From Takakia lepidozioides (taxonomy: Eukaryota; Plantae; Bryophyta): DNA of 64,000 bases. Below, one piece after another: positions 10,571-43,527 of this stretch (position 1 is its first letter; each line of letters starts with the position of its first letter). The stretch lies in NCBI GenBank assembly GCA_030704615.1, contig CM060731.1:85870001-85934000 (forward strand). Direction: 5' to 3'. Below the pieces are notes generated by a model. The model had not been told where the DNA came from. It worked only from the letters and a program-made list of their open reading frames with translations, and did no database searches. A program made the position numbers and the translations under genes.

Positions 10571-10605
<35 letters not shown>

Positions 10606-16600: not shown

Positions 16601-19600
16601 GCTTGGCAGAGGTCACCTTAAGCACACACATCTTGCCAAACCAACGGTAGCCGTTGACATCTCCAACCAGTTTGTCCGAAGTTTCCCATGTCTCTTGCCC
16701 AGCACAGATATGAATACCATTTGACTGAAGAACTTGTCCCACTTCAAATTTTTTCCTTTGGTTAGTCAACCCCGAGAAGTTGAAAGTGCCCAGCCGCAAG
16801 CCAGCCTTTTGCATATGGATTGTTTGCCGTCTAGGGAGCCTATGATTGCTCCTGGACGACCAACCGCTCTGCAAAGGGGGATCAGTTGCCCCATGTGTAG
16901 ATTTTGGGCGTCTAGAGTAAACCTTAAGGATTGGCAAGCCATTCAGAGTGCCAAATCCTTCAGGCGAAGATTTAATTCTTCTAGAGTAAACCTTAAGGAT
17001 TGGCAATCCATTCAGAGTGCCAAATCCTTCAGGTTCCTGACGCTCAGCCTCAGCACACATAGGGCCAACTAATCTGTCTGGCTGCTTGGTATCGATCTCT
17101 TCCAGGGCTTCAAACCGGTTAGAAACTTTCAAGTTGAAGTCCCCACACTTGACTGTCTCCTATGGTATCCCACCGGTATACCAAGGGCATACTTCCCCCA
17201 AATACCCCCCACTCCATTCACACTATACAGACGGCTCCCACTCTGGCTCCAGAGCTAGATATGGCGTCTACCATGCCGTCACTAACAAAGACACTGCCCA
17301 CCAACTCCCCGGCCCCGCGATAATACTACGTGCCGAGCTTATGGCTATCTTCACCAATGTCTAAGACCGCCCTCCAACCAGTCAAGGGGCGAATTTCTTT
17401 GAAGCTGATTTGATGTGGGATTCTATTTGTAGCAGATTTAGGCAATGAAACCTTCAAAGTACCTCTGTTATCCAATCTTGAGATGGTGCCATTAGCCACA
17501 TAATCCAAGCCTAAGCTGGAGCAGGTAGTTTTAAAGGACACATCGTCCATCCTGGGATTCACCCCAAAAACTACACATGAAGCTCTAGATTTGGCATAAG
17601 TAACCATTTCCCAGGAATCACCCTGAGTAGTGTTATTATTGGAGTGGCCAAATATTTTTTCTGTATTCGCAGGCTGTAAGTTTAAGCACAAGGACCAACC
17701 CTAGCCCAAGTGCCGAGTATGCTAGACAGAGCATGCAACTGCCCATTTTTGGCGGAGGGGCTGCCCCCAAGCGGTAGGGGTCCGCTTGTTACCATTCAGA
17801 GATCATCACTCCAAAGGAGCTGCAGGGAATGGCCCGCGTAGACATGTTCTAAAGAGGGAGAGGCCCCAGACTCTCCAACTAAATCCAACGTACTACCTTA
17901 CCCAAAGCAGAGTGCTTCAGGTCAAAACAAACCAAGACTCGCAAGGCCGGCATTTAGTCACAGAGACATTTATCTACTCCCATTTCAAGTCCACCCAATG
18001 TCGATAGGCTTCCTAGAGGGCAGAGAGAGAATGTACTCATAAGACGTGTTTTGCCGTAGCCTTGTGGCCATTGACCCCGCGCCCAGTTTGAGCGGAAAAG
18101 GGCAGAGAGAGAGAGAGAGAGAGAATGTACTCATAAAACATTGTTTGCCATAAGAGAGAGAGAGAGAGAGCATGTCAACCCTATATTAGGAAACTCGACA
18201 TGTCCTGTCCATGTCTTTCTAACAACATTAGACAGCCTGGTTGAGGCATATCAACTGCCACCATCCAAATCTGTCTCACGGAAAAAACAGATGTAGGGTG
18301 TTCTACGTGGCAATCAGCTGCACACTAGATAGGCAGGTCACAGGAAAAAGGTTTCCTTCACACTTTCATATATTGGAAGCAAAACAAAAGGGGAATGGCA
18401 GAGTAGTGCCAATGCAAAGGCAACTCCCTTCAGTGTGACCACATGCCTTCAGATCTTTACCCTCAAGAACCCAGCAATGAAATAAAGTGAAGTGGCCTCA
18501 CCCGGATCCCTCACAGCCACCCAATAAACCAACAAGTTGTTTATGTCTGTGGCACCCCAGGCTTAAACCCCTTCACATTTGTTATTGATGTCATACTAAC
18601 AAAGAATGTACGCATAAGATGCTGTTTGCCATAGTCTTGTGGACATAGACCCCGTGCCCTGCCCAGGGAAGAGAGGTAAGGGAGGTCTGTACAGCCAATT
18701 AAACCAGCAGTAAGCAACCATTTCCAAAGAGAGTGCCTTCGTGTCAATAGGTAGTTTAGTGTAGCACTTCATGGTAAGGCTACAGTTCCTAGGCGCTTGG
18801 AAGCATACAGGAAGCTACACCACAAAGCGAAGCAACATTCATCAGTGAGCACTCATTCCCAGTACTCCAGAGGGAGGGGGTGTTGCTCCCAAAGTAAGCA
18901 CCCATTTGTTACAAGAGCCAAATGAGCTACCTTCATAGCAAAGTCAAGCACAATGATGCTCTAGATATATTTTGGTGTATGTGAGCTGAGACCCAACCAT
19001 CTGAGCCAAGAGGGTTAGTATGTCTCCTGGACCGGTGCCCACGAGGTTACATTGGTCGATCTCTCTGTCCCTCTATCTCTCTCTGTGGACTTTGATAATT
19101 TTTTTCTTCTATCTTTGTTGTTCTTACTTCCAATCATCCGCTAGGTTTATAGCCAGAAGGGCAGTGTAAGGGGTACAGCTTCTTCCTTGTTTTGAAAAGG
19201 AGGAAAGGGGAAATTCTCAAGATCAAACTTTACTAGCACACTTCTTCAGGAGCCACCTTAGCAAACCCAAGACCATGAAGGCAACAAAAGAGGCAAATAC
19301 TGAAAATAAAGGCATAAGTCCTCTGAAAACAAGAAGCGGCTCGCTTCTAGAACCATCTTGATGCACATTCTTCCCCTCTGTCTCTCCCTCTCTTGGTAAC
19401 TTGTAGTCATAGCCAACAGTCATAGGTGTGTATGTAGGCAACATGAGCTTGTATGTCATGGAGTTATGCAGCTAATGACTGCCTCATTATTGGGTGTTAT
19501 GCTGCAGGTGCTTGTTTACTCTCCTGATGGCCGTTGCCTCTTCAAGTATTCTGCATATGACAATGCATTGGGCTTGAAGTCAGTCATGTGGTCCCCATGT

Positions 19601-21470
19601 GGCCAGTTCTTGGGTGTGGGTAGCTATGATCAAGTGATGCGTGCATTGAATCATCTAACATGGAAGCCTCTGGCCGAGTTCAATCATCCAACTGTTGTCA
19701 AAGGCCCCTCTGGTTCTGTTGTTTTTAAGGTGAGATACTAAAACATACAAGTGAGTGATACTTGTCAACAATAAGCTTAGGATGTAATGGACACTTGCAT
19801 GTGACATTTCTTAAGCACTGCGTGGGGCACATTGATTCCCACTTTTCTTACAGACTGTGAAGCCTAAATCACAAATGTGGCAAGCCCAGACCCCCATGTT
19901 CAGTTGATTGAACCACATTGTACAACTTCCAACATGAGTCCAGGTGCTACAGTGCCCTCACTACTAGTAATCTTCTGCAAGACATAAGTAACACAAGATG
20001 AAACCTTTAAAGTGACAAAGAGTTTTACTTTCAAATGCAGCTTCAAAAGCATGATGCCTCCAGCAGGAACATTCAAGTTTCTGGTTCCCATTCTCTTTTC
20101 GGCATGGATTCTCCCTATATAATTAGACAGCATTTTCCTTGCAGAGACGGAAGGTTGAACCATGTTGATAGTACCACCATGGAAAATGATATGAATTATC
20201 GATGAATTATTATGTTTTCATATTGCAGGAAATCGAGGAAGCCTGGCATGTCGACATGCAGAATGGGTATTTAAATGGTATGCCCATTCATGATAATGTA
20301 GGTAGATGCAGCCGTAAGAACAGCCATTGCTATGAATACAAGTGTGCTAAGGAAGGTTTTGTTTGACATCAAAGGTTTGTGTCTATTTGTCCTTCTCTCT
20401 GTTGAATCATTTTCTGACTGTGGTTAGGGATATCCTGTGGATGTTTGGGAGAAATCCTTGTTATGGACAATTGCTCTTCAATTCAGACTGCAACTTTGAT
20501 TGTTTAAGTCCAGACTAAAGCCAATTTTATTGTAACGGATAGATGTGATTCATAATTACATGTTTTAGCTTGGTATGGTTAAGGCCCACCCATGCCAAGG
20601 GAGGGTAGACTACAGCTTTGAGGAAGGTGACCACAGCTATACAACTTATTCATTGTAATATAATCCTGAAATTTGCCGACTGATGATGTGTCTGCTGAGT
20701 TCGGAAATGTGACAGACAATGCCAGCGTTAAAGGGACCAGAGTGCGCTACAAAGTGGCTGAATTGCCAGTGATGGTACCGTCACAAAAGCCACCGCCTGA
20801 CAAGCCCAACCCAAAGCAAGGCATTGGTATCTTTTCGTACACTCTCTTGGTCATTCTACATGCACAGACTTAGTGTCATATCCAAAGATGGAGAGACGTA
20901 ACTTGAAGAGTAAAGAGAATGGGAACTATTTTGGTTGCTCTTTGTTGCAGTCTGTGGCCCTTAACATATCTGTAATTGTGATATTACTCCTTGTTTGGCT
21001 GTGACATCATGCATTCATGATGTTTATCTTGTAGAGCCTGACCGCCTACCACACCATTGATATAGCACATCTCAGATGTTCTGATAACAAACTGCACCTT
21101 GTGGTCAGGTTTGTTGGGGTGGAGCTCAGACAGCAATTATATTTTTACCCGCAATGACAACATGCCAACAGCTCTTTGGATATGGGATATATCGCGTTTA
21201 GAATTGGCTGCGCTTCTCATACACAAAGATCCCATCCGTGCAGCAGCATGGGATCCCATCTACCCGCGCATCGCTCTTTGCTGTGGAACCTCCCACTTGT
21301 ACATGTGGACACCAGCCGGTGCTTGTTGTGTAAATATTCCCCTCTCTGAGTTTGTGGTATGTGACCTCAAGTGGAACTCTGATGGGACTGTGTTGCTCCT
21401 GAAAGACCGTGAAGCATTTTGTTGTACCTTTGTTCCAGCACTTTCTGAGTTTGATGGGGACGGAATTTAA
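10453..21470 (+). CDS. WRAP73: WD-repeat protein WRAP73 (WDR8), 7 exons: 10453-10569, 11093-11265, 11610-11925, 19508-19729, 20229-20301, 20716-20826, 21109-21470 (about 457 aa)
   Basis: [99 protein letters not shown] and [13 protein letters not shown] are characteristic of WRAP73. All junctions are GT..AG with compatible phases. The exon 5 donor could instead be at 20277. Confidence 0.92.
12300..12365 (+). mobile_element. Very short (66 bp) 3'-end copy of the intronic LINE, with 15-bp TSD
   Basis: Matches the LINE 3' end (...CTTATGAGTACATT); flanked by TCTCTTTCCTTGAAT at 12285-12299 and 12366-12380. Confidence 0.75.
13246..18016 (-). mobile_element. Non-LTR retrotransposon (RTE/RTEX-like LINE): APE endonuclease, RT, C-terminal Cys/His knuckle; frameshifted; (TC)n 3' end
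   Basis: ORF 15387-17132 has [26 protein letters not shown] and TSDHFLV. ORFs 15091-15378 and 14190-15197 have [27 protein letters not shown] and [16 protein letters not shown] 13253-14218 has [17 protein letters not shown]. The 3' end abuts (GA)n at 13225-13246. Clade assignment is tentative. Confidence 0.88.
17161..17362 (+). other. RNase H fragment inserted antisense inside the LINE N-terminal region
   Basis: HYTDGS...RYGVY...ILRAELMAI is the N-terminal half of RNase HI (first Asp and the Glu motif). It interrupts minus-strand LINE coding text (GWRAVLD | [16 protein letters not shown]). Confidence 0.6.
18031..18151 (-). mobile_element. Two further short 3'-end LINE copies (18031-18098, 18124-18151) embedded in (GA)n
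   Basis: AATGTACTCATAA... matches 13246 onward; the first copy is flanked by AGGGCAGAGAGAGA at 18017-18030 and 18099-18112. Confidence 0.75.
18604..18666 (-). mobile_element. Diverged short 3'-end LINE copy
   Basis: GAATGTACGCATAAGATGCTGTTTGCCATAGTCTTGTGGACATAGACCCCGTGCCC aligns to the LINE 3' end. Confidence 0.6.
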
Positions 21471-22505: not shown

Positions 22506-23161
22506 TGTTGTGGTGTGATTGTGCTCGTAGTATGCATCTGCGTATGTACCACCACTACGTGAACTTTTTTCAATGTGTAAGGATTGACTTGCCTTTTTTT
22601 TTCTTTTTTCTTTTTTCTTTTTTCTTCTGGTAGTAAAAAATTTAACAATCCTCAAATGGCAATGGGCTCTCTCGCTTTGGCAAACATAAGATGAAGGTAA
22701 GACTAGGGAGCATGACTCAGCACAACACACCAATCGGTGCCTTATCACGGTGTAAGGTCGTTTGACCACATTTTCTCCATTGACCTCAACATGATGCATA
22801 GTAGTCTCTCCCTAAACAAACTTTACCTTTTATTTGTACAAGAGAACCAACAAAGAAGGGAATAAAGGGCCCAGGTTTGAAGTGGGGGTGTGAGGATTAG
22901 AGAGTGGTCCAAGAATTAAAAAGCGGGTGATATAGTAAGCTACACCACGACTTGAATTAATAACCGTCATGTAAGGGGGGTAAGAAAAAACAATGCATGA
23001 AGCCGAAAAGGATATTACCCTGCGTGCCACCCCAAATTGGGTCAGAAAGTGTGGCATGCCGGTTTCTAGGGCTCACACGTGTCACAGGGCAACCTTCTAG
23101 AAGGTCCCACCGCGTGAGGATCCTGCGGGCTTCTAGAAGGGCCCCACCGCCCTAAGAGGGT

Positions 23162-23351
23162 TGTCGTGCGCATACATATCGCTACACAACTACATCGCTG
23201 TCCAAAACCACACAACACATGTGCACACCACACACTAGTATACCACTAGTCTACCACTAGTCCAGCCACTAGTCCAACCACTAGGCTACAACTATGTCAG
23301 TCACTAGGCTGCCACTACGCTGCCCACTATGGCAGTCACTAGTCCACACAA
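23162..23351. repeat. Split-LTR block A1 of copy 1
   Basis: Near-identical to 23676-23865; rich in CCACTAG units. Confidence 0.9.
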
Positions 23352-23673
23352 TGATAAGAAGAAGAAACAAGCACAAGCTCATGCGAGCTCACAAAGCTGA
23401 AGCATAAACTCATGCATATATAACCTCATCACTCAAATACAAGTCAAGCCAAGTGCACCCCACGCCATGGGGAATCCACACTACGGCGCCATAGCTAGGC
23501 GCGGTGAGGCTCAACTCGAGAAAGATGAGTCTCCCGCGCTTGCCGTGAAGATAACCACTCCAGGGCCTAAATCTGCCTTGACCCCTGGATTGACACTTGG
23601 CCAATCCCAAATGTCAATATGTAAAGATAGCTATTTCCTAGCTAGTTTCACACTAGTGTAAAATAACTTGACA
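23352..23673. repeat. Split-LTR block B1 of copy 1
   Basis: Near-identical to 33887-34213. Confidence 0.9.
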
Positions 23674-23675
23674 GC

Positions 23676-23865
23676 TGTCGTGCGCATACATATCGCTACA
23701 CAACTACATCGCTGTCCAAAAACCACCAACACATGTGCACACCACACACTAGTATACCACTAGTCTACCACTAGTCCAACCACTAAGCCCAACCACTAGG
23801 CTACAACTAGTCAGTCACTAGGCTGCCACTACGCTGCCCACTATGGCAGTCACTAGTCCACACAA
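23676..23865. repeat. Split-LTR block A2 of copy 1
   Basis: Repeat of A1, joined to B1 through the palindrome GACAGCTGTC (23670-23679). Confidence 0.9.
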
Positions 23866-23877
23866 TCGCCCCCCTAG
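23866..23877 (-). promoter_or_regulatory. Polypurine tract of copy 1
   Basis: Minus strand CTAGGGGGGCGA directly precedes TTGTGTGG (start of block A2); identical tract at 37609-37620 in copy 2. Confidence 0.75.
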
Positions 23878-24129
23878 CTGGTGCTTAGGTCCCCTCTAAG
23901 TCTAGGTAGCCACAAGATGTGATAGTGACCATAGCCTCACTAAGTCCTCCACCACTATCCCTACTACACTCAAACTCGATAGATCAAGAGGCCGGGTGCA
24001 AGAGTTGCCCCAATCGTTAGTCGCCGTCTTGCACCTGTGAACTTGAGCTTGGATCTCATGTATTGACTCCTATGAGCTTGCCTCCCATGTCTTGTTAGCT
24101 GTCCTCCAGTCATGTCCACTGCACTATCC

Positions 24130-25420
24130 CAGTAGTGTGGACACAACCAATCTCCGTCAGGAACCTTCTCAGAGAGGTGGGTCAAGCATCCCATAATGCC
24201 AACCCCCTTGAGCCACCGATCACACACCAGCTGGTTGCCTGCCCCTTTGGCAGACCCACAGCGCATGCACCTCAAACCTGCAGGTACCACTGCCAAGTTT
24301 TTGGGTCAACTCTGCCATCGACATTGGGAAGGTGCGATGGGCGCACAATTACGCACATGGTCTTTCCAATTCATGCCATCCCGACCCGACGCCTCAAGAT
24401 CAGGACCCCTGAGGGCAACACCTCTCGAACCCTCAGATAACACGCCCGCAGTAACATCCAGATTCGTAGGAGCAATCTGCTGCAAATAAACATAGTCACC
24501 AGGGCTTAAACCTCCGAACCCCAGGACGATATCCCTCCACCACCACTTATAGTGGCATACCTCAACGTATCCCGTGCTGTGGTTGTCATGTCAGGTTCTC
24601 AAAGCCATGGGCAATGATTTCTTGAACAACTCTGCACGCTGATCACATGCACGTACCCACACGTCCGGATCGTCAAGGTTAAGGACTTGAGCAGTGTCCC
24701 TACGAATGGCTGCAGGCAAATCCGGCTCTCGGCCAAAGAGAAGGAAATATGGTGAGAAGGAGGCAAGTGATGCTTGTTTGCTGAACCTGTAGCCCATGGC
24801 TAACCAAGGAACCTGAAGATCCCAATCTCCTAGGTGTCCCTTCTGCAAGCCATACTTGCGCAAACCCCTCTTCACCGTCTGAACAACTCTCTCTGCTAAG
24901 CCATCGGCCTCAGGATGATCCCGAGAAGTGGTGCGGTGGTCTATCAAGGCTTTATCACACAAAGCCTGAAACTCCCCCAAGAACTCTCTCCCTTGGTCCG
25001 TGAGTACCTCAGCTGGAGCACCAAATCGGCTAAGCACACGATCCAAGAATGCATACGCAGCCCCCTCACTAGCCTTGTCAGGCAATGGAACCAACTCAAT
25101 CCACTTGGAGAAGTGCTCCACCATCACCAACACATATCTGTGGTGGCGCATAGTCAGTGGCAACGGTCCTGCGAAGTCAAGACTCCCAATCCCATGATAG
25201 GTAAAGGATGCAACTGTGGTGTAGGGGCGTTGAATGAAGCACGCACCCTGTCACACACCATGCACCTAGCCACAAACTGTTGCACCTCTGTATGCATACC
25301 ACGCCACCAATACTGCCCCTGCAGTAAACTGTGAGTGCGTCGCACTCCAAAATGCCCCAACTCCTCATGGGCATGCCGCACTAACCGTGCACGCTGTGTG
25401 GGGTGAGGCACAATCCTCAC
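24130..25420 (-). pseudogene. Integrase (HHCC zinc finger, DDE core) with C-terminal PHD finger, frameshifted
   Basis: HAHEELGHFG...CMVC; VEHFSKWIE; LTDQGREF; HPEADGLAERVV; terminal CMRC...VCDR...GCLT...VPDGDWLCPH. Confidence 0.88.
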
Positions 25421-25749
25421 CCGACCATCCTCCCACACTCGAAGTAGGTGTATCCCCTCCCACTTGAACCTCTTGGCTCGTTGCAGGATCCGATCCCTCT
25501 CCCTGGCAGTCACAATGGCTGCCGTGTCTCCCGTGCGGAGGTAGTCCAACACAGCCGAATCCTCATGTATATCTCTGGCACCACCTAGCTCATCACTAGC
25601 CTCAGGGTCCTCAGACACTCCGTCTACAGTCATCCCTGTTGTAGGTCCAATCTGACCTCCCGATGCCAAGATACACAAAAATGCAGATGCGTGCCATCCC
25701 GGCACCATCTCCTCGTCCGTCTCACCCATGCCACCGAGCTCCAGTGTCA

Positions 25750-27110
25750 TCCTGCTGGCTCATGCATGGATTGCGACTCAATCCATCCGCATCCCGATTG
25801 ACCAAACCCGGTCGATGCACAACCTGAAAGTCATACTCCTGGAGTATAAGTGCCCACCGTGCAAGCTTCCCCGTAAGCTTGTCTGACTCCATCAACCACT
25901 TGAGTGGCTGGTGATCCGTGACAAGGGTGAAAAGATTGCCGTATAGATAGCACCTGAAGTGTGCCACGGCCCACACTGCAGCTAAGCACTCTCCCTCATA
26001 TGAGCTGTACTTAGCCTCTGCAGCGTTGTTCGAGCGGCTAGCGTAAGCCACTACGAACTCTCTTCCCTCATCATCCACCTGTGTGAGCACCGCTCCAAGC
26101 CCCAGCATGCTCCAATCCGTATGCAGCTGAAAGGGACGCCCCCTGATAGGTCGTCTCAAGATAGGCGCCGAGGTCAACCTCGCCTTGAGCTCTTGAAAAG
26201 CTCGTTCCTGCTCATCTTCCCACTGCCACTCCTGGTCCACCTTGGTCAGCTTGGTTAGAGCCTTTGCAATGGTACTAAATCCCTTGACAAACCGTCTATA
26301 ATAGTTTGCCAACCCCATGAAAGCTCGAACTCGGCTCACATCCGTGGGGCGTGGAATTTGTGCAATGGCCTCTACCTTAGTCTGCTGTACCCCCAATCCT
26401 CCAGGATATATCATGTGACCCAGATACTCAATCTGGTTGTGGAAAAACTTGCACTTCCCCGGATGCAACTTCAATCCGTGCGCTCTCAAGCGCTCCAATA
26501 CCACCTGAAGGTGTCTCTCATGCTCCTCCATCGTAACACTAAGATGATGATGTCATCTATGTAGCACCGAGCAAAGTCCACCCCTGCTAGAATCCTATCC
26601 ATGACTCTCTGAAACTCTGCAGGAGCATTCTTAAGCCCAAATGGTAAACCGCCACTGATATAGGCAATCCTTGCCGTGCTCATTGATCCCCCAGAATGCC
26701 GTCTTCTGCTTGTCCGCCTCCTTGATTGGCAACTGGTGATATCCGGATCGTAAATCCAAAGTGCTAAAGGCCTTAGCATGCCCGATGGCATCAAAGATCT
26801 CCTCTGGTGTTGGCATGGCATACTTATCGGACTTGGTCTGACGATTTACAGGCCGGTAATCACCGCACATACGTCTCTCCGTCCAATTGCCATAGACATC
26901 CTTCTTGGCTGGCATCACTGTGGCTGAAGCATACTCTCCACAGAGAGCTCCACCAAACCTGCCTCCCAGAGATCTTGAGTCCTCATCTGAATCAAAGACC
27001 TCTCCATGTCACTGTATCTATAGGGTCTCCGAAAGATTGGCGTGTCAGTGGCCAACTCAATACGGATCTCTTGACCCTTCAGTGCTCCCAAGTCCTTCAA
27101 ACTGAAGGCA
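25750..27110 (-). pseudogene. Reverse transcriptase and RNase H (Ty3/Gypsy type), frameshifted
   Basis: RMCGDYRPVN, FSTLDLRSGYHQ, PFGLKNAPAEFQR, YIDD, KCKF..YLGH; RNase H LHTDWS, YSSYEGE, TDHQPL, DADGLSR. Confidence 0.93.
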
Positions 27111-27569
27111 AAGCAATTCCTGTAAGCCCTCAGGAACCGCCGTATACGTCTCTCTCTCTCTCCTCCGGTGACAATGGGTCCAATGTCAGGCTCCCAATTG
27201 TCCTCCGTAACTACAACCTTAAGTCCAGTGGGCTTAGAGGTAGAGGACGCGTCCCGTGGTTGCTATGCTGCAACCTCTTGAGCAGTACTCCCTACCTGCT
27301 CAGTCAATGACAAGGCATCATCCTGCCCCATCATCTCATCCTTGAGGACCTCCTCAACTCGAGAAGAATCCCCAACCTCATCCATCACAGCCGCCTTGGC
27401 TGCCAACTCCCTCTGAACCTCGAGCACCTCCCACGTGTGCCATGGATGCATGCACCCCGTGGTCCTCATATGCTCGCCCCCACTCACTGCCTGTACCGTC
27501 TCGGTAGGCAGAGAGACCATTGAGGGAAGTGTATTCCGCACTCTGCGTTGCTCAGCTAGAGCCAAGCTG

Positions 27570-28515
27570 ATAATCCAGGTCAAGCAATTGAGATCCATTG
27601 CTTGCCCCAACACTTGACGACGTGATGCCTCAGAAAGAGACGACACCGCCGTGGTACCAGTGGTAAAACCCATTGCCCGCTCACGCTCGTCAGCATTAGG
27701 CTCCACTAACTGCTGCAACTGAGCATCCCACAGGAGGCCAGGTCCACTATCCCGGAAAGCATGCGATCCTGGGAAGCTGAGCAGTGTAGGTAATGCTGCT
27801 CGTGGTTGACCCACCTTGTTGACCACTGCCAAAGGCGAACGGTCATCGTGTCTCACACGTTGAGACTGCCTCCCTGTGTCCAGAATGTTATCCACTGTGA
27901 GATGTGCTGGCCGCTGCACCCCATCAAATGCACGCTTGAGCAGTGCGGGTGGCATCATGTTAGTCCACCATAGCCGTGGACGATGAGCCCGTGACCCCAC
28001 TGTAGCTGCATCTAGCAACACTGCTGACCCAAGCCACGACCGGACTTGATGCACACTGGCCATCACCCTGGCCCGAGAATCGCCCATCAGTGGCACATTC
28101 TCCAAGATGTATGCTGGATACAGCTTGATGAAGCTGCAAGTGGCGCAAAACCCGCACCATCTCCAAAACAGACCCGACCTCGAGTCTCGCAATCCATTGC
28201 CATGCCCGGCTGATGAATGCCCTTGGCAGGGCCAACCTGCCACTACCAGATCAATGGAGCCAACCCGCTCCAAATCCTGCGCCCCCAGCAACGAAATGTC
28301 TGCTGGCAAGGCCTGCTGATATCCACGAATTGCAGACACACCGACAACAACTCAGGGTACCGCTGCACCAACTGAGCAACATGGCGAAGTGAAACGCGTC
28401 GTGCAGTCTCATCCCTCTCCACATACAGGTAACGCCGAACTCGTACACCTGCCTGTAACACAGCAGCCAATCCGGTGCTGATCCCGCCAAACAAGTCCAG
28501 AAGACAAATGCCTTC
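27570..28515 (-). CDS. DNMT3-like C5-cytosine DNA methyltransferase domain embedded in pol (about three small frameshifts in this assembly)
   Basis: Motifs in canonical order: I LLDLFGGIS, II YVERD, III ADI, IV AGWPCQG (catalytic Cys), V GL..SRSGLF, VI ILENV, VIII AHRPRLWWTN, IX ERERAMGF, X RRQVLGQAM. Motifs VIII-X resemble DNMT3 (AHRARYFWGN, EMERVFGF, RQRLLGRSW). Confidence 0.92.
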
Positions 28516-28899
28516 ATCCGGAGACTGCCACACAATAGGTGTGGTGTCCAATGGAGACAATTGAGGTGGTCCTGGTGCAATCCCCACACTCTCCTCCTCT
28601 CCTGACGGTACAAAAGCCTCCACCCAGGCTTGTTGCACCCGTCGATCAGCATCCCGCTGCAAATCCTTGCTCGTGCCCCACAATGGAGTCTGAGCAACCA
28701 TGGTAGGCAACTCCGCCATACCATACATGTCATCCTGCTCTCCCGGAGGTGGTACATCCTCTGAATGAGCATTGCCCTCAGCAACTCTCTAGGCCAACTC
28801 ACTGCCGCTGTGAATGCTGCTAGTGTCGGCATCTTGCCTCGCTGGGCAACCGCAACTCCTCCTATGAACGTCACAGGGAGCTGCACACGCCGGCCCTCC

Positions 28900-29300
28900 C
28901 CTGACTGCCATGCAGGCCTATAGGAAGCTGACTCCTCCCAAAAATCCAGGGTGAAGCCCATGGGGTACAACACTGCCCCACCAACCAGGACATCGTATGA
29001 GACTGCGTCTGTCACAATGGCCTTGGCTCGCATCACTGAGCCATGTAGGGTGATCCGGCCGTAGTCTGATAGCCAACTCATGCCGTGTCATGCCCCGAGC
29101 CTGCTCCGATCCTCCCAGAGACGTCTGTATCTGGAAAGGACAAGGCTCCATATCCGCCTCCGTGAGGCCCAAGCCTGCAATAGCAGCTCTGCCCAGCATC
29201 AGTGGCTGAGCTCCCGAGTCCAACAAGACTCGCAGTGGCCGGTACCTCTTGCCTGCCGGTCCACTCAAACAGAAAATGCCATCCTGGTTGTCTAACATGA
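28900..29300 (-). pseudogene. Retroviral-type aspartic protease
   Basis: RVLLDSGAQ active-site motif and downstream YDVLVGG. Confidence 0.8.
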
Positions 29301-29899
29301 CAACTCCAGGTGTCACCATGGCGCGCTCAATGGCTGGCCTAGCTGGCAGCTCCATCAACCTGGCAGCTGCAGCTTGCCATGGCGCCGCCGTGGCAGTCTT
29401 GACCCTCAAATCCGAGGATCCCTCCGGCACTACACCCCCACTATCTCCGCAGAAGATGAAGTAACCTCCCCACTCTCACAGAGTGTAGCTGCCAGCCTGA
29501 ACACCTCAGCTGGTCTTACCCCCGGCGTCGCAATCATGGTAGCCGAGAACAATGGAGCCTGGCACACAGATGTGGCCGCTCCTAGCAGCACACTAGCTGC
29601 CGTAGCCTTGGCAACACTAGGTAGTGGTGCTACCCGTGTAGCTCTCCCCAATGGCATAGTAACCTCCGCCTCGGTAACAGTCGGGCGAGAACTAGGCCAT
29701 GGATGGCGTCGACACTGTCTCCGCCAATGTGAATGACTGAGGAAGCCTAGCCTGACGGCTTGCCTCCCCACGCTGTGGATCCAACTCCACCTCTGCACCT
29801 CGTGGCTCAGGAACTCGTGCTGCTCCTCGAGTCACGGCTGCAGCAGACTCCACCTGCACTAGTGGTAGTGCTGCTCCACACATGAATCCCATGCCTCCC

Positions 29900-31424
29900 A
29901 TATCTCCTCCCTCAGGAGCAGGAGGTGGACCATCCGGCCTTAGAGCCGGTACCCTGAGCTGTAGCCATGGCAGCGAGCCTCTGCTCTAGCTGCTGAAGCC
30001 GGTTGGCCATGCCTTGGTCAACACCCTGACCTCCGCGTCCTTGGCCACGTTGAGCTTGCCCTTGGCCTGCACCTCGTGGCTGGCCACCTCGTCCTCTCTG
30101 GGCTGCTCCACCTCGCCCCCGGCCACCATTGTTCCCTTGGAACTGGCCTGGGCGCAACTCAGGATGCAAACCATAACACTGGGCCTCTCCATGCCCGTGC
30201 TTGCCACAATGCCACACTGCAACTGTGCAGGCTGTGCATGTGCCGACCCTTTGCCTCCCTCTGGGCAATCCTTCTTGACATGGGGTCCTCCACATGTCCA
30301 GCACACCACATCCGCCCGTTGTTGGCCAGCAAATGAAGGGAGAGACCCCTGCATCTGAGGTCCTCTCTGCCCTTCCCTGAGCTTCACCTGAGCCCCCTTG
30401 TTGCCTTGAGCACGTTGAGGTAGTGGTTGGCTAGGAGCACCACTACCCCGTGGTGTCTCCTTAGCAAATCCCACCATGACCACTCGTTCCTCCACCATGT
30501 TGAGCTCTATCCGCTCTGCCAGCAAAACACATTTGCTAAGGTGGGTTGGGCCGCTTGTAGGAGAGTTGCATCCCGCACCCTTCTCCTCAGCTCCTTGTCC
30601 AATATCCCATACCAGAATTGGACTGCCTGAGCTTCCGTAACCCCTTGGGTTACATTTATCAAGCGCCTCATGCGAGTGAAAGCCTCCTCAAGCTCTCGGT
30701 CGGCTTCCGTTGGAACTCTTGCAAGCTCCGCAACTTCTCTGTCCTCACCCCTTGGTAGTTCCCTCTCAACTCTTCGAAGAACTCCACAACAGGGTTGAAG
30801 GCAGGCACGGGTGCTAGTGCTGGTGCGGTAGTGGCTTGGGTGGACGTCGTAGCTACTGTACCACCAGTCCCACTGCTGCTTGCTGAAGCTGCCCGGTGCA
30901 GCGGCAGGTGTAGCCACTGCCCTCGTGGCTCTAGTGCCCCTAGTGATGGAGACATAGTCGGGTGACCAGTACATCCTCCACTCCTCGATCTCAACCTCAT
31001 GCCCCCGCCTGAACTCATGGTAATCATCCATAGGCGGCCCCTCAAGGTGCTGAAACAGCCCTTTCCATGCCATGAACGGCGTAAATAGTTGTGGATTGCG
31101 CATTTGCTGCAAATCACACCAACTATCAAACTCTTGGATAAAATCATCCAACTCAATGGTGCCCACCGCCCCAGAGTACCTTCGTGGCCCCTTGGTAGCT
31201 CCATACATCTCCTCCATTGTGTCCCACAACAATGGCAAAGAAACAACTTGCACCGCCGGTATGAGCCCTCCTGATTCACAATCCGAATCAGAACCTTCCG
31301 TGGAAGACACAGGAGGTGAAGGTGGCCTAAACCGCACACCTCGTCTCGTGTACCCACTAGTATCGCTAGTGCTCGAACCGGCACTGTCCCCAGCAACTAG
31401 TGGCACCTCCGTGTTGACACTCAA
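29900..31424 (-). pseudogene. Gag-like region with two CCHC knuckles, frameshifted
   Basis: RRYSG...LDDFIQEFDSWC, FQRKPTESL; knuckles CWTCGGPHVKKDC and C.HCGKHGHGEAQC; RGG-rich stretch. Confidence 0.75.
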
Positions 31425-31679
31425 CCGGTCATGAACATGTCCCTAACCCCCTCTCCACAAGGTAACCGGGTAGAGAACCTGTTGCGGCTTATGGTTTGGA
31501 ATACTAAGTTCCTAACATAGCCTACACCTGAACTTGCATGACCATGGGAATATCATGAAGATACTCCTCAACCGCCCTCCACGAGCTTCAAAATTCGGCC
31601 TTCCCCAATGCCAGTCCTTATGCCTCCACAGTCAGCACAGGCTCCACAGGTCAACACGGGCCACCACAGACCAGCACAG

Positions 31680-32370
31680 GCCCACACAGCTCACTGGTCA
31701 CAGCCGTCACAGTCCCACAGGCCACTGGGCACAGCCTGTCACAGCCCCTCACATGTCACAGCCTCATGTCACAACAGCCCCTCACAGCCCCATGGGCACG
31801 GCCTGTCACAGCCCCTCACAGCCCGTCACAGCCCAAGGCCTCAGGCACGCCTGTCACATCACACGCCTGTCACAGCCCTCACAGCCCGTCACTCAAAAAC
31901 AGCCCTCACAGCCCTCACAGCCGGTCACAGCCCCTCACAGTCACAGCCCCAAAGGCCACGGCCTGTCACAGCCCCTCACAACCCTCACAATCACAACAGC
32001 CTCACGGCCTGTCACAGCCCCTCACAGCCCGCCATTCACAGGCCCGTGTCACAGCCCTCACAGCCTCACGGCCTGTCACAGCCCCTCACAGCCGCCTCAT
32101 GTTGTCACAGCCCTCACAGCCCGTCACAGCCGGCCTCAGGCACTGTCACAGCCCGCCCTCACAAACAGCCCCATGGGCACAGCCTCACAAGGGCCTTGTT
32201 CACAGCCCCATGGGCACAGCCTGTCACAGCACACAGCCCGTCACTGTCACAGCCCGTCACAGCCTCACAGCCCTTCAGGCACACAGCCCGTCACATCACA
32301 ACAGCCCCTCACATCACAGCCCCACAGCCCACACACAGCCGCCTCACAGCGGCCTGTCACAGCCCCACAC
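31680..32370. repeat. Degenerate (TCACAGCC)n minisatellite in the 5' leader of copy 1
   Basis: Dozens of TCACAGCC / GTCACAGCCC units; the array is absent from the leader of copy 2. Confidence 0.85.
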
Positions 32371-33870
32371 ATGGCCGCTCTGGCAGTTTAGCCATTTCTC
32401 CAAGGGGTTTAGCCACGCCAAGCTAGGGTTTGTGTCTCTTGGACTCTAGGCTTCTTTCCACCGAGCTATGGTGGCTGTGAGGAAATCAGCAAGGTATCCT
32501 TGCTCTTTCGGCTCCCACACCACCATAGTAGCCCTAAGCCATGAGGTGGTTGCCACAAACCAAGCCTTTCTCACTTAGCCTCCCCAAACACGCCACTAAA
32601 CTCAATGGCAAACAACCAAGCCCTGCTGGTTCCCAGCCCTTGTGAGCACATTCAAGCACTCTCATTGGCCATAGCATCTGTCTTAGAGCCTATTCCAGCC
32701 CTCTACACCTGTTGCTTCAAGAGTTGCGCTCCCTTCAAGCTTGAAGTTGAAACCCCAACTCACATAGGCCCTACAAGTGCTTTTCTTTTCACTCCAAGTG
32801 GAAACCAGCCCTAGACCTTCCGTTCTAGCTCTCTAAGGCTTGAAAACAAGAGCCTCAATGGGCTGAAGCATGCTCCACACATGCCCCACTCTCACCATAA
32901 GAGAATCAGCTCCTTTGCTTCATTTCTTGCACCCACAAACCTGAAAATACAAGCTTCAGCAGGCTGAAAGCATGCTCTACATGCCCTAGGGAAACCAGCC
33001 CCCCCTTCCTTGCACTCCCACACCTAAAGTGCAAGCCTTCACCAGGCTGATAGCATGCTCCACACATACATTGCCCTCACATAAGGGAAGTCAGCCCTTC
33101 CCTCTTCCTTGCTTGCCCTCCAAGCTTGAAGATGGAAGCTTCAATGAGCTGAATACATGCTCCACACATGCAACCTCTTCACACAAGAGATATCAGCCCC
33201 CTATCTTGGCTCCTTGGCTCCTTGATGCTCTCTAAGACAAGACTAAGCACTCCACAGCCTTTGCCAAGCTCCTGAAACCCTAAGGCTTACATTTCCAGCC
33301 ACAAGACACTTCTCTTGTGGTGCAAGAGCTCTTCTTCCAAGCTCTGAAACCCTAGGTGCACATTCCATGGCCTTGCCGCACCTCTTAGCTCCTGTTCCAG
33401 CCCTGCTCTTGCCATGACAAGAGCCCTCTCAATGCTGAAGCTCGAGATTGAAACCCAATCTCACCATACTCCACAAAGTGCACTGATTTGCCCCAAGCCA
33501 AATCAGCCCTTTCGCTTGGTCTTGCAATCCTTCACACAATGAAAGCTCGCATTCCCAAGTCCAGTTCTCAGCTTTGCCACCAAAGCCACTATAACCTGCT
33601 CTTGACTGGTCCTCTTCCCAATCGTGCTTGCTCATGCATGTACACAATCTGAAACCATCAAGGTGCTCTGGAATTACCTGCAGCATGGTGCTTTCATCTC
33701 TGAAGCTGAAGATCGAATGCCAAGGTCTACCACCTCGTAACCCACATCGCCTCCGCTTCTAACAACCAAGAGCTCCACGGTGCTCCTTGCATAACAACTT
33801 GGTTTCTCTCATTCTCAAGCAAAAACCACAAGTGCTACAACTAACTCGTATCTGGCACTCATAGATACGA

Positions 33871-33887
33871 GCTCATCTTTCTCGAGT
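33871..33887 (-). promoter_or_regulatory. Primer-binding site, complementary to a sequence in the element's own block B (self-priming type)
   Basis: GCTCATCTTTCTCGAGT (33871-33887) is the exact reverse complement of ACTCGAGAAAGATGAGC (34051-34067); no TGG start as expected for a tRNA PBS. Confidence 0.75.
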
Positions 33888-34213
33888 GATAAAGAAGAAG
33901 AATACAAGCACAAGCTCATGCGAGCTCACAAAGCTGAAGCATAAACTCATGCATATATAACCTCATCACTCAAATACAAGTCAAGCCAAGTGCACCCCAC
34001 GCCATGGGGAATCCACACTACGGCGCCATAGCTAGGCGCGGTGAGGCTCAACTCGAGAAAGATGAGCCTCCCGCGCTTGCCGTGAAGATAACCACTCCAG
34101 GGCCTAAATCTGCCTTGACCCCTGGATTGACACTTGGGCCAATCCCAAATGTCAATATGTAAAAGCTAGCTATTTCCTAGCTAGTTTCACACTAGTGGTA
34201 AAATAACTTGACA
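33887..34213. repeat. Split-LTR block B2 of copy 1 (5' terminal repeat of the element)
   Basis: Repeat of B1; ends AACTTGACA followed by the TSD GGGT. Confidence 0.9.
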
Positions 34214-36281
34214 GGGTATATAAACGAGATCCCCCTGCCTAGTACTTACTAAGTTACCACTTACTAGTTAATAAGTGGTGGGCTCTGCAGGCGCAGGGCC
34301 CCCAAAAAAAACATAAACACGAACTATAGGTATATTAATTAATAGGGGTCCCAAATCCACATTCTGGCATGGGCCATTCCTAAAGGTCGAAAAAGGGAGA
34401 TGAGTGAAACGGCCAATGGGGAGGGAGGGCACCTGTGTTGGAATGGGTGAAATGTGAGGCCAGGTGTAGAGGCTAGCATAGAAGTAGGAGGGTGGGCCCT
34501 CTTTCTAGTTCTAGAGCTTTTGAGAAGTAAGATGAGCTGGTGGGGATGAGGGGATGGGCCCCCCTTCTAGAAGGCTCCACCACTGCCTTGAGATAGTACG
34601 TAAAGAGGGCGAGGGCTACCTTCCGAAGGTTCCTTCTGCCACCTTACTTTGGTGGGCTCTGCAAACAAGCCCCCCCCCTAAAGAATGTAAACTTGAACTT
34701 GAACCATCTTCAAATGAATAGAAATGGATGGCCCTCGAGAACCTTATTGGCCTTGCCTTCTTAACCCCTAAAGGACCAGGAGGCCCTCAACGTGTCATTC
34801 AATCTGTTCTAGGGGCCTTGGATCTAAACCAAATCGGGCCCCACAAATTAGGTTGTCTGCAGCTTGGAGTTATGCACAAAAGTGTCTCTCTTGATTTGCT
34901 CCTAGGCCCGCCATGGTGCTTGTGTGTAAGATCAAAGCACCACTCTCCTGATTGTTGGAAGGAAGTTGGGGAGGCGCAGATGCTTCATGGCGCATGGATA
35001 GGCTTGGCTATCTATTTTGACCTCCCCCTAATATGGCAATGTGACAATTGGTTTTATCCATTTATCTTGAAATGGCGTTGGCCCATTCCCGCCACAAAAG
35101 CACAGATTCCCAAATCAGGCCATTAATTACAGCTGGTTAGAGGGATTTAGCCAAAAATTTGAATCTGGCTATCGATTTTTTAGAAAAGTTTATAGAGAGG
35201 TTGTGCGAAAGTTTGGCAGTTGTGCCATAGTTGGGCATGGCTTTCTGCTTTTAGCAAAGGTGGCTATTCCATGCACCACCGTAGAACGGGACCATATGGT
35301 GTTTTCCACCGACACTTTTGCACGTGTGACAAAAAAAAGAAATGTGTCGAGGAAGGTGACCTACTTAGCATGTCATGGGAGGAAAAATATTGGCTAGTGT
35401 AGGTCAACCATGGAGAACGGGACCCATGCGCCCAAACGCCTCACTTTTGGTGAGGCGTTGGGCGCACGGGACCCGGCCAGGCCCTGCACGGGTCCCGACA
35501 TCCATGGAAGTGCATGGAACGGGGTGCCCACCCATTCTCCCTTCGTGTGACATCAGCAGAACGGGAGAACGGGTCACATGGAAAGTAACCCTAAGTCCCC
35601 ACTCCGAGGGCGTACCGCGGTGTGAGGGGAGTAGTCCGAGGGCGTAGCCCGAGGCACTATGACCCGAGCACCAAGGTGGGCCCGAGGCGGGGGGACTTTC
35701 CCTGCATAAAGACAGAGGGATCTTTCCCGCGGTGGATGGCTCAGATCTTTTGAAGATCTGCGTGAATGGCTCATATCCCTAGGATCGAAATAAAAAAAAT
35801 GAATTTCAAAAGGAAAAGATGACAGGGCGTAATATCCCACGAGACATTACGCGTAAGATCCCCCGCCCACGGGATCTTTCTGTCATATAAGGTCCCTGCA
35901 AATACAAAGGGAAAAATCCCGTAGGTTTTACGTACTAGACGTTATAATCAGGTAAAGACGTATTCGTGCGTATGAATACACCATAAAAAGCAGGTTGTGG
36001 AGTATTCTCGCTGATACTTTGCGCAATCTGATTGGGTTTGAATTATCCCATATCGATTGCCCATTTTCAGAACCCTGTGGAGGATATAAACGGCGGTGAG
36101 CTTCAAGGGATTGGTGGGTGGGGTGATGGTTGATTACGTGTTCCTACGGATTATATACTTTGCCATCATGGGTGCATAATCGGCCATCAAAGATTCGGCA
36201 ATCGGCAGTACACCATGGGTGGTCGATTCTGCCAAATAAATTGCCCTGTGGAAAGGGTCGAATACGCCTTACCTGATTTTA

Positions 36282-36321: not shown

Positions 36322-37857
36322 AACGCTACTCGCTAGCATGGCACTTTATACCACGAAATAAGCCCACTCGAAATACTTAAAAGGAGTTTTTTTGGAAATT
36401 CTTTACGAAATGTTCATGCACTAGACTCTGTAATCGCCAAGGCTGCTTTTTGCACCTGTCACATCACGTTTGATAGGTAAAAAAAAAATAGCCTATCAAA
36501 AGAATGGCAAAAGTTACTGATAGTTATTAGCAATTTTATTAGTAAGTCCACCTAGGAGAGGCTCAAAAATGTACAAATTATTAGTAGTTACTGTCAATCT
36601 TACTAGTAAGTCCACCCTAGAGGGGAGCCTCACCTAGGCATTGCCAACTGCCCTTCTTTGTCTTTCAAGCCCTAAACCACTAGGCTCGCCTTCTTTGTTT
36701 CCTGTGCGTGCTCCAGCCTCCAAGCAAGCCTCTCGCGCGGCTCCCAGTGGACCGGTACGCCCGGTAAGTTGGTCTTTCTCTCCTGTTCGTGCCCTCCCTG
36801 CCCTTCATTTCCTTTGTCGTGCGCATACATATCGCTACACAACTACATCGTTGTCCAAAATCACAAAACACATGTGCACACCAAACACTAGTCTATTACT
36901 AGTCCACCACTAGTGCACCGCTAGGCTACCACTAGACAACCACTAGTCACCACTAGTGCAGCCACTAGTCCATCACTAGGCTACCACTAGCCACCACTAG
37001 TGCAGCCATTAGTCCAACCACTAGTCTGTCACTAGTGCAGCCACTAGTCCATCACAATGATAAGGAAAGGAATAATACAAGCATACAAGCTCTCTCAAAC
37101 TCACACACTTGCACATGAAAACATCACTCATATATTAAAGTCGAACCAAGTGCACCCCACGCCATGGGGAATCCACACTACGGCGCCATAGCTAGACGCG
37201 GTGAGGCTCAACTCGAGAAAGATGAGCCCACCGCGATCTGCCGTGAAGATAACAACGTCAGGTGCCCAAACATGTATTGGTCCCTGGATTGACACTTGGG
37301 TCAATCCCAAATGTCAATATATAAAAGCTAGCTATTTCCTAGCTAACTTCACACTAATGGTAAAATAACTTGACAGCTGTCGTGCGCATACATATCGCTA
37401 CACAACTACATCGCTGTCCAAAATCACACAATACATGTGCACACCAAATACTAGTCTATCACTAGTCCACCACTAGTGCACCACTAGGCTGCCACTAGAC
37501 AACCACTAGTCACCATTAGTGCAGCCACTAGTCTATCAGTAGGCTGCCACTAGCCCACACTAGTGCAGCCACTAGTCCAACCACTAGGCTGCCACTATTC
37601 CATCACAATCGCCCCCCTAGCTGACGCTTAGGTCTCTCTAAGTCCAGGTAGCCACAAGATGTGATAGTGGCCATAGCCTCACTAAGTCCTCCACCACTGT
37701 CCCTACTACACTCAAACTCGATAGATCAAGAGGCCGGGTACAAGAGTTGCCCCATAGTCGCCGTCTTGCAACCTGTGAACTTGAGCTTGAGATCTCGGGT
37801 ATTGACTCCTATGAGCTTGGCCTCCCATGTCTTGTTAGCTGCCACTAGTCATACTGT

Positions 37858-38722
37858 CTATCCCAAGCAGTGTGGACATAACCAATCTCCATCAGGAACC
37901 CTCTCAAGAGGTGGTGTCACGCATCCCATGTGCCAGCCTTTTGAGCATCGATCATACACCAGCATAGTGGCGGCACCACGAGCATGCCCACATAGCATGC
38001 AACGCAACCCTGCAGGTACCACTGCAAGGGTGGGATCTATCCTCCCATCCACATGTGGAAGGTGACATGGCGCACAATTACGCACATGGTCCTTCCATAC
38101 CATGCCATCTTGACCCTCCAGATGCAACACTCTTGAAGGCAACACCTCCCTGACCCTTAGAATCACACGTCCTGCTGTGACATCCCAGGTCGTAGGCGCT
38201 GTCTGCTGCAGATACACATAGTCCCCAGGGTGGAAACGCCGAACACCTGGCCGATATCCCCCTCCACGTATAGTGGCATACCTCAATGTGTCTCGGTGTT
38301 CGGCAATAGCAAGATTCTCAAAAGCCATAGGCATGACTCTCTTGAACAACTCTGCCCGCTGGGCACATGCTTGTGTCCACACATCCGGATCATCAAGGTT
38401 GAGGACTACTGCAGCCTCCATGCGAATAGACGCAGGCAAATCTGGCTCTCGGCCAAAGAGAAGGAAATATGGTGAGATGAGGCAAGTGATGCTTGCTTGC
38501 TAAACCTGTAGCCCATGGCTAACCAAGATACCTGAAGATCCCAATCTCCTAGGTGTCCCTTTTGCAAGCCATACTTGCGCAAACCCCTCTTCACTGTCTG
38601 AACCACTCTCTCTGCCAAGCCATCGGCCTCAAGATGATCCCGAGAAGTGGTACGGTGGTCTATCAAGGCTTTATCACACAAAGCCTGAAACTCCCCCAAG
38701 AACTTTCTCCCTTGGTTCGTGA
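37858..38722 (-). pseudogene. Integrase C-terminal part with PHD finger (copy 2)
   Basis: CMLC...V(Y)DRC..GWHMGC..PPL..VPDGDWLCPHC is a C4HC3 PHD finger with one Cys-to-Tyr change. Confidence 0.85.
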
Positions 38723-39957
38723 CTTGGAGTATGAGTGCCCACCGTGCAAGCTTCCACGTAAGCTTGTCTGACTCTATCAACCACTTGAGTGGCTGGTGAT
38801 TCGTGACAAGGGTGAAGAGATTGTCGTATAGATAGCACCTGAAGTGTGCCACGGCCCATACTGCAGCTAAGCACTCCCCCTCATACGAGCTATACTTAGA
38901 CTCTGCAGCGTTGTTCGAGCGGCTAGCATAAGCCACTACGAACTCTCTTCCCTCATGAAGAGTGTGAGCACCGCTCCAAGCCCCAGCATGCTCCAATCTG
39001 TATGCAACTGAAAATGACGCCTCCGATAGGTCGTCTCAAGATGGGCGCCGAGGTCAACCTCGCCTTGAGCTCTTGAAAAGCTCGCTCTTGCTCATCTTCC
39101 CACTGCCCTCCCTGGCCTACCTTGGTCAGCTTGGTTAGAGCCTTTGCAATAGCACTAAATCCCTTGACAAACCGTCTATAGTAGTTTGCCAACCCCATGA
39201 AAGCCCTCACATCTGTGGGGCGTGGAATCTGTGCAATGGCCTCTACCTTAGTCTGCTGTACCCCCAATCCTCCAGGATATATCATGTGGCCCAGATACTC
39301 AATCTGGTTGTGGAAGAACTTGCACTTCCCCGGATGTAATTTCAATCCGTGTGCTCTCAAGCGCTCAAACACCACCTGAAGGTGTCTCTCGTGTTCCTCC
39401 ATCATAGCACTAAAGATGATACTGTCATCTATATAGCACCGAGCAAAGTCCACCCCTGCTAGAATCCTGTCCATGACAATCTGGAATTCTGCAGGAGCGT
39501 TCTTAAGCCCGAATGGTAAGAATCGCCACTGAAATAGGCAATCCTTCCCGTGCTCATTGATCCCCCAGAATGCCGTCTTCTGCTTGTCCGCCTCCTTGAT
39601 CGGCAACTGGTGATATCCGGACCACAAGTCCAAAGTGCTAAAGACCTTGGCATGCCCAATGGCATCAAAGATCTCCTCAGGTGTGGGCATGGCATACTTA
39701 TCGGACTTGGTCTGACGATTTACAGGCCGGTAGTCACCGCACATACGTCTCTCCGTCCAATTGCCATAGACATCCTTCTTGGCTGGCATCACCGTGGCTG
39801 AAGCATACTCTCCACCAGAGAGCTCCACCAAACCAGCCTCCCAGAGATCTTGAGTCCTCATCTGAATCAAAGACCTCTCCATGTCACTGTATCTGTAGGG
39901 TCTCCGAAAGATTGTTGTGTCCGTGGCCAACTCAATACGAATCTCTTGACCCTTCAA
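38723..39957 (-). pseudogene. RT and RNase H (copy 2)
   Basis: ORF 38953-39957 with RMCGDYRPVN, LPFGLKNAP and YIDD; RNase H motifs follow. Confidence 0.9.
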
Positions 39958-40366
39958 TCATCCCAAATCCTTCAAACTGAATGCAAAGCAATTCCTGTAA
40001 GCCCTCAAGAACCGCCGTATACGTCGTCTTTCTCCTCCAGTGACAATGGGTCCAATGTCAGGCTCCCAATTGTCCTCCGTAACTACAACCTTAAGTCCAG
40101 CAGACTTAGAGGTAGAGGACGCGTCCCGTGGTTGCTATGCCGCAACCTCTTGAGCAGTACCCCCCCTGCCTGCTCAGTCAATGACAAGGCCTCATCCTGC
40201 CCCATCATCTCATCCTTGAGGACCTCCTCAACCCAAGAAGAATCCCCACCTCACCATCACAGCCGCCTTGGCTGCCAACTCCCTTTGAACCTCGAGCACC
40301 TCCCACGTGTGCCATGGATGTCTACACCCCGTGGTCCTCACCGGCTCGCCCCCACTCACTGCCTGT

Positions 40367-43300: not shown

Positions 43301-43527
43301 GGCCCCTTGGTGGCTCCATACATCTCCTCCATTGTGTCCCACAACAATGGCAAGGAAACAACTTGCACCGCCGGTGTGAGTCCTCCTGATTCACAATCCG
43401 AATCAGAACCTTCCGTAGAAGACACCGGAGGTAAAGGTGGCCTAAACCGCACACCCCGTCTCGTATACCCGCTAGTATCGCTAGTGCTCGTACCAGCACT
43501 TTCCCCAACAACTAGTGGCACCTCCAT
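40367..43527 (-). pseudogene. gag, protease and N-terminal stub of the DNMT (copy 2)
   Basis: LLDSGVQ and CWTCGGPHVKKDC; LDLFGG motif at ~40495-40515, then deletion of motifs III-X. Confidence 0.8.

Follow-up and report, generated by a model that had tools for sequence, protein, structure and literature searches.

A full-length Ty3/Gypsy retrotransposon carrying a DNMT3-like C5 cytosine methyltransferase (DNMT) lies in a 64-kb stretch of moss DNA (the window), and comparison with its relatives indicates that retrotransposon methyltransferases are real and old in land plants. Our preferred reading, to which we give a probability of roughly 0.55, is that the element belongs to an abundant, old bryophyte Ty3/Gypsy family in which a Gag–protease (PR)–DNMT protein would be packaged and would methylate the element's own cDNA before insertion, with reverse transcriptase (RT) and integrase (IN) made by stop-codon readthrough and with insertion by way of a circle.

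The element (element 1; 23162–34213, minus strand) is ~11 kb long, has TG..CA ends and is flanked by a 4-bp target duplication, GGGT (23158–23161 and 34214–34217). It shows the Ty3/Gypsy (Metaviridae) domain order gag–PR–RT–RNase H (RH)–IN, with a DDE integrase; its coding region is not flanked by two identical long terminal repeats (LTRs) and instead lies among split repeats in the order A–coding–B–A–B. Read along the minus strand, the 5′ copy of repeat A (33888–34213; 98% identical to the inner A) contains a predicted 17-nt self-primer (34051–34067) that is complementary to a primer-binding site, not of the tRNA type, immediately 3′ of A (33871–33887). A long 5′ non-coding region containing short tandem repeats comes next (31500–33870), in which four tested open reading frames gave no Pfam match and no recombinase. 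The coding region begins with a frameshifted gag with CCHC knuckles (29900–31442), the capsid part of which is ~55% identical to Marchantia Mp4g09160, and continues with an aspartic protease bearing the motif LLDSGAQ (28921–29361; Pfam E = 0.0085) and the methyltransferase (27570–28515). Pfam also recognized the frameshifted RT and RNase H (25725–27262) and the integrase, which has an H2C2 zinc finger and an rve core with D, D and E (24594–25759). The C-terminal PHD finger (23973–24305) is decayed in element 1, and that of a second copy, element 2, matches Pfam PHD at E = 2e-8. A polypurine tract (23867–23877) lies immediately 5′ of the inner copy of B (23676–23866; 97% identical to the outer B). 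The inner B meets the inner A (23353–23673) at the palindrome GACAGCTGTC (23670–23679), which comprises both element ends and a 2-nt spacer and is the predicted integrase attachment site; the outer B (23162–23352) ends the element, and the place where it meets A is predicted to be the circle junction.

A preliminary description of this DNA had placed C5-methyltransferase motifs, in order and without introns, between protease and RT at 27570–28515, and motifs I–X were found there on the minus strand, including the catalytic PCQ (28220–28234) and ENV (28094–28102) that it had named. The Pfam comparison that it had proposed matched the domain to DNA_methylase at E = 5.2e-9. It had also called the domain complete, which does not hold for this copy: three frameshifts interrupt it, one after motif II and a compensating pair between motifs V and VI, so that it is read in three frames. 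The placement in pol was right as to the position between protease and RT, but the domain ends the Gag–PR frame, and a stop codon (27263–27265) precedes RT. When the frame from the window was compared with PDB sequences, DNMT3A ranked first (6.4e-5), and a profile of 45 sequences gave 1.9e-23 for DNMT3A, 3.4e-10 for DRM and 1.8e-6 for M.HhaI. The predicted structure of an intact relative (P0001; pLDDT 89) likewise had DNMT3A as its best fold match (E 2.1e-19), with ~22% overall identity and a target-recognition stretch that differs. These scores and the predicted fold, rather than a tree, indicate that the domain resembles DNMT3 more than it does DRM, DNMT2 or bacterial enzymes, as its earlier designation as DNMT3-like had implied.

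The residues expected of a working enzyme are conserved in the family. Among the best 120 of 267 and the best 120 of 127 matches, the catalytic Cys is kept in 163 of 167 aligned relatives; in the same 240 relatives, among the matches listed, the E and N of ENV are kept in 195 of 207 and 204 of 208, respectively, and the Arg pair of motif VIII in 205 of 236 and 217 of 235. The ratio dN/dS, which the preliminary description had proposed to compute across copies, is not near 1: for the DNMT domain it is 0.06–0.14 between lineages, where dS was computable, 0.26 when window copies 1 and 3 are compared and 0.37–0.44 for copy 2 (54 codons). Decayed Sphagnum-type (peat-moss) copy pairs gave 0.40–0.59 for DNMT and 0.24–0.78 for RT. 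Apart from those of the decayed pairs, these values argue that purifying selection acts on the DNMT domain. A host exon (0.49) and a LINE nearby (0.43) show CpG loss no different from that of the element (0.47–0.55), and nothing unusual was seen in CpG or CHG depletion around element 1.

Element 1 is a dead, broken copy. An independent 2.3-kb contig, 99% alike and with vector-like letters at its flanks, has small indels where the frame of element 1 breaks, and retains the stop downstream of the DNMT frame. Element 2 (36815–45799, minus strand) is ~92% identical to element 1 and has the same B–A–B end and a stop codon (40135–40137) in the same context (TAG CAA CCA); its 5′ A is absent beyond the primer site (45779–45795). 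All three homologous DNMT pieces that had been reported from the window were recovered, but most of the domain is deleted from element 2, in which motifs I–II remain (40368–40530), and the third piece is an inverted PR–DNMT fragment (45801–47013, plus strand) with motifs I–VIII, one stop and one shift. Because this fragment abuts the primer site of element 2 and the three pieces are about equidistant (36, 28 and 23 private differences over 690 columns), it may not be an independent insertion. Amplification of the domain with the element, which the preliminary description had drawn from these pieces, is better shown by four public DNA runs from two samples, in which the coverage of DNMT bins was of the order of that of RT bins and greatly exceeded that of the right flank, and in which very many variant contigs of the family were found. 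The runs show a large family carrying the DNMT domain, the coverage not being a copy number, and the domain is thus not confined to this locus.

The host was placed by means of its WRAP73 gene (10453–21461, plus strand; six exons used). In a tree of 33 rows, without hornworts, WRAP73 clusters with Ceratodon, Physcomitrium and Sphagnum (96/90), within a group of mosses and liverworts (99/97), which identifies the host as a moss that is not close to any of these three and agrees with the land-plant host suspected earlier. A charophyte host was rejected, WRAP73 identity being 61% to Chara versus 74–78% to mosses. In three raw RNA runs, no read matched even the host gene. Exons at 500–1790 (plus strand) belong to what we take to be a CFAP58-like flagellar coiled-coil gene, which presumably fits a plant with swimming sperm.

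Several further features of the window were recorded. A near-intact LINE with endonuclease and RT lies in a WRAP73 intron (13253–17159, minus strand), and remnants of other Gypsy-type integrases and gags lie at 3215–5055 and 9581–9841. An array of ~50-nt units at 5356–6460, each with a palindrome-like core GCGACCGCCA..TGGCGGTCGC, resembles the subterminal repeats of DNA transposons. Open frames of 539, 125 and 371 amino acids stand in one run at 48329–51442 (plus strand), and the two that were tested had no Pfam match. The stretch 54900–59160 is a large inverted duplication that contains arrays of a short repeat, and no Pfam match was found for a 200-aa frame present there as two copies in inverted orientation (56127–56732 and 57109–57753). 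At 60000–60880 (minus strand), two short frames in repeat-rich, transposon-like surroundings resemble an amino-methyltransferase in two parts (Pfam N6_N4_Mtase, E = 0.068), and their atlas features lie near SAM methyltransferases (0.90); a second mobile methyltransferase here is a weak lead. The motif LIVLDLNG near 63640 is one that we take to be HAD/NIF-like.

Relatives of the moss element are distributed widely. Among the matches listed, those with 51–73% identity came from Marchantia polymorpha, M. paleacea, Calypogeia fissa, Riccia sorocarpa, Sphagnum troendelagicum and S. fallax, and those from Closterium had ~40% identity; at least eight named species, Scenedesmus included, had relatives. 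No Klebsormidium or vascular-plant name occurred among the matches listed (best 120 of 267 and best 120 of 127, most rows being nameless), nor was any protein named as Klebsormidium listed in the further protein searches. A Marchantia cluster of 18 members includes several that are 1278–1281 aa long, and M. polymorpha carries intact frames that are annotated as hypothetical genes (Mp4g09160, Mp5g06330, Mp5g06860, MpVg00370 and MpVg00540). At E ≤ 1e-30, a profile search recovered 622 clusters. The only matches in viral contigs were 12 weak ones, to methyltransferases of phage type (27–53% over short stretches), and prokaryote genomes gave a single locus (L063) of the same element family in a binned assembly, which is likely to be eukaryotic contamination. 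A 127-nt overlap between the ends of L063 was rejected as proof of a circle, given that an A..B–A loop gives the same overlap in assembly, and no circular form was seen.

Two domain orders were found: DNMT before RT, as in element 1, and RT–RH–DNMT–IN–PHD, which accounts for 30 of 128 proteins in one set and 34 of 126 in another and is also the order of the Scenedesmus pol. In RT and DNMT trees of 55 elements having both domains, the 16 DNMT-before-RT rows form one side of a branch (SH-aLRT 99 for RT and 95 for DNMT), with Closterium outermost among them; the RT–DNMT distance correlation is 0.88 within these 16 rows and 0.40 within the other 39. The two trees match, and the domain has thus long travelled with RT. 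These results point to an old lineage common to liverworts, Sphagnum, Closterium and chlorophytes, and not peculiar to the host genome.

The position of the stop codon bears on how the enzyme would be made. DNMT is the last domain of the Gag–protease frame, and a conserved in-frame stop divides it from RT; the intact Marchantia proteins of 1278–1281 aa are Gag–PR–DNMT and end 97 residues past motif X, and intact proteins of the bryophyte type have this order and end about 95 residues past it. In both window elements, an in-frame TAG CAA CCA lies upstream of the RT frame, and in element 1 this CARYYA readthrough context (27257–27265, minus strand) closes the Gag–PR–DNMT frame. The stop was compared among 33 loci, those of 65 sequences that had an anchorable pre-RT segment, by taking the nearest upstream in-frame stop; the loci are mostly near-copies from peat-moss samples and represent about five lineages. 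It is TAG in 21 loci and TAA in 12, and is followed by CARYY in 31 of the 33, the context of L032 and L036 not fitting; the full CARYYA occurs in 7, and CAACCC, one base off the consensus, in 24. DNMT is fused to RT without a stop in some Closterium models and in some unnamed proteins, which makes the stop a trait of a subclade. According to the accessible part of PMC2754532, CAR YYA is a plant readthrough signal that functions also with UAA. The moss element resembles the TMV-type UAG CAR YYA described there in its stop and hexamer context, in frame with a polymerase; unlike in TMV, the predicted readthrough stop parts Gag–PR–DNMT from RT–RH–IN–PHD. Because the enzyme ends the Gag–PR frame ahead of a readthrough-type stop, it would be made at Gag levels. 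We infer that the methyltransferase is made together with Gag, and RT–RH–IN–PHD at a lower level.

The ends of the element point to an unusual route of replication. Target duplications are exact in four of the five elements with both ends, including L024 (CACA), L020 (TTCA) and L035 (AAGG), which shares the A–coding–B–A–B, TG..CA layout; the fifth, L015, has one mismatch. Split repeats were seen in window elements 1 and 2 (3′ part), L035 and L005, and the palindrome is exact in 6 of 65 sequences, versus ~0.5 expected, with L038 one base off. The last 11 pairs of the primer duplex are kept in all eight sequences, from three lineages, and 6 of these 11 pairs have changed on both sides (covariation); the self-primer of Tf1 is 11 nt. 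A consensus fold recovers the same helix between primer and primer site, and no tRNA gene was found in the 64-kb window. The predicted primer sits in a short local hairpin in the window (34040–34075) and in L035, L038 and L063, and it is possible that this hairpin is a switch that competes with primer-site pairing. In a single case, L024, the A|B junction holds 10 nt of the primer site.

Past the first B, six sequences run into the palindrome and A, and in five Sphagnum-type loci the first B goes directly into the flank. This short A–coding–B form could reflect double cutting, recombination or assembly collapse, and would be without the 3′ A required for strand transfer. The palindrome also occurs soon after the polypurine tract in L052 (7511–7590), the only locus of RT–RH–DNMT–IN order that has it, most such contigs ending early; its presence there suggests that split ends may be common to the whole lineage. 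Because the primer site and the polypurine tract mark out B+A as the cDNA's LTR, the integrated order would be a permutation, which needs end joining and a cut at the inner palindrome. Foamy-virus integrase is described, in the available portion of PMC1180852, as cutting palindromic circle junctions. These layouts suggest that integrase makes its cut inside the LTR of a circular cDNA.

In the cycle that we propose, the RNA would start inside A and prime itself at the site after A, and self-priming together with the polypurine tract before B would yield a linear cDNA with ordinary B+A LTRs, the ends of which would join to form a circle. Integrase, produced with RT through readthrough, would cut both strands of the palindrome after CA, at a single B|A boundary, to give the usual processed ends, and A–coding–B–A–B would be inserted with a 4-bp duplication; if both palindromes were cut, the shorter A–coding–B form would result. 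The enzyme is likely to be packaged at Gag levels and to methylate the element's cDNA before insertion, so that the cDNA would already bear its marks on entering a methylated host genome, and the PHD finger may steer insertion. A broader reading, which we put forward tentatively and rate somewhat below an even chance, is that of a green-plant-wide lineage, alive in mosses and liverworts, that self-primes, must circularize, integrates by means of the palindrome and methylates the circle with a DNMT3 made at Gag levels, its replication being unlike that of any described integrase-coding element.

Other explanations differ in what the enzyme would act on. An active enzyme, set free in excess from Gag, might work mainly in trans or at the target, on host chromatin, rival elements or older copies, and so limit harm to the host, a self-limiting idea that is raised in the consulted part of PMC5890265. 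Its abundant frame, which is not beside RT, would supply many enzyme copies per particle, and the PHD finger is on the integrase; the absence of unusual CpG or CHG loss around the element speaks against it, and Gag-frame products normally stay within the particle, so that we consider this alternative unlikely. A decidedly improbable one is that the domain is kept for a role other than DNA methylation, such as holding cDNA ends or modifying the RNA genome. The target-recognition stretch is unlike that of DNMT3A, and the Klebsormidium domain showed no methylation of yeast DNA, a result that its authors call inconclusive in the text available (PMC5890265); however, hundreds of divergent relatives retain the catalytic Cys, ENV and RxR, which is the pattern of a working DNA C5-methyltransferase.

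Methylation of cDNA by a packaged enzyme would stand unchanged if RT and integrase came from a spliced or re-initiated RNA rather than by readthrough, for which we see little chance. In Sphagnum-type copies, T-rich bases before TAG resemble a splice acceptor and an ATG lies two codons past the stop. However, TAA in 12 of the 33 loci keeps the stop and loses the AG, the window copies and L019, L038, L039 and L063 have no ATG there, and the reading frame stays open through the stop. Local, passive capture of a host DNMT3 by a dead element, or an assembly artefact, would be in keeping with the broken state of all three window pieces, but is refuted by the family-wide depth, the independent contig across the domain, the relatives in at least eight named species, the matching trees and the purifying selection.

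Among described elements, the closest in features is KnitGypsy-Dnmt3 of Klebsormidium nitens, for which the accessible text of de Mendoza 2018 (PMC5890265) gives Gypsy domains, an intronless Dnmt3-like domain, DIRS-like repeats and purifying selection. The moss element likewise has Gypsy domains, an intronless, unrearranged Dnmt3, purifying selection and the A–coding–B–A–B order; it differs, as far as that account extends, in its land-plant host and high abundance. Moreover, a single ORF of KnitGypsy-Dnmt3 covers DNMT, RT and RNase H, according to its authors, whereas in the moss element a conserved stop lies between DNMT and RT, and readthrough would fuse the two in the smaller part of the products. 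The parts available of the KnitGypsy-Dnmt3 account (PMC5890265) do not mention self-priming, a palindromic junction or target duplications, and they give no replication model. Because the shared ORF is lacking, we regard the moss element as working like KnitGypsy-Dnmt3 and not as a member, the two being likened by features and not by descent. SymbioDIRS-Dnmt3, which methylates CG de novo in yeast according to the same partial source (PMC5890265), and the split-direct-repeat DIRS elements share with it a retrotransposon Dnmt3 domain and A–coding–B–A–B; as characterized in the text available, however, DIRS elements have a tyrosine recombinase, whereas the moss element encodes a DDE integrase, ends in TG..CA and is flanked by 4-bp target duplications. 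Membership in DIRS/Ngaro was rejected on the DDE integrase and target duplications, with no recombinase match in the scanned ORFs.

Like Tf1/Sushi and Tcn1, to which it is likened here by features and not by RT placement, the moss element has a primer site that pairs with its own 5′ repeat and not with a tRNA; in the available text of PMC6317226, which covers self-priming in Tcn1 and not Marchantia, Tf1/Sushi and Tcn1 have ordinary LTRs and a chromodomain, whereas the moss element combines split repeats with a PHD finger and a methyltransferase. The EpiLTRs of Cymbomonas and Euglena are also LTR retrotransposons with a cytosine methyltransferase, described in the accessible part of a 2026 preprint (bioRxiv 10.64898/2026.05.21.726589) as DNMT4-related, with DAM and a chromodomain, and set apart there from streptophyte Gypsy-DNMT3. 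In the portions available, that preprint and PMC12344493 cite only the Klebsormidium case for streptophytes, the 2018 paper (PMC5890265) treats that case as a capture within its lineage, and a 2019 commentary (PMC6338049) says that land plants have no transposon-encoded DNA methylases. The preliminary description had known of no land-plant case, and our literature search found no such report, most subscription literature, including the REM1 paper, being beyond its scope. Nothing beyond the 2018 paper and the 2026 preprint came up in a phrase search, and the consulted parts of PMC9940879, PMC8557442, PMC2774666 and PMC10952607 held nothing on a DNMT-bearing Gypsy family.

The abundance of the family in bryophytes and its relatives in Closterium and Scenedesmus indicate that the capture of the methyltransferase is old. 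With its split ends, the family would escape standard LTR finders, and the same ends point to circles as true intermediates of a DDE integrase. Because Marchantia polymorpha carries several intact Gag–PR–DNMT frames, the function of a retrotransposon methyltransferase may be testable in a genetic model.
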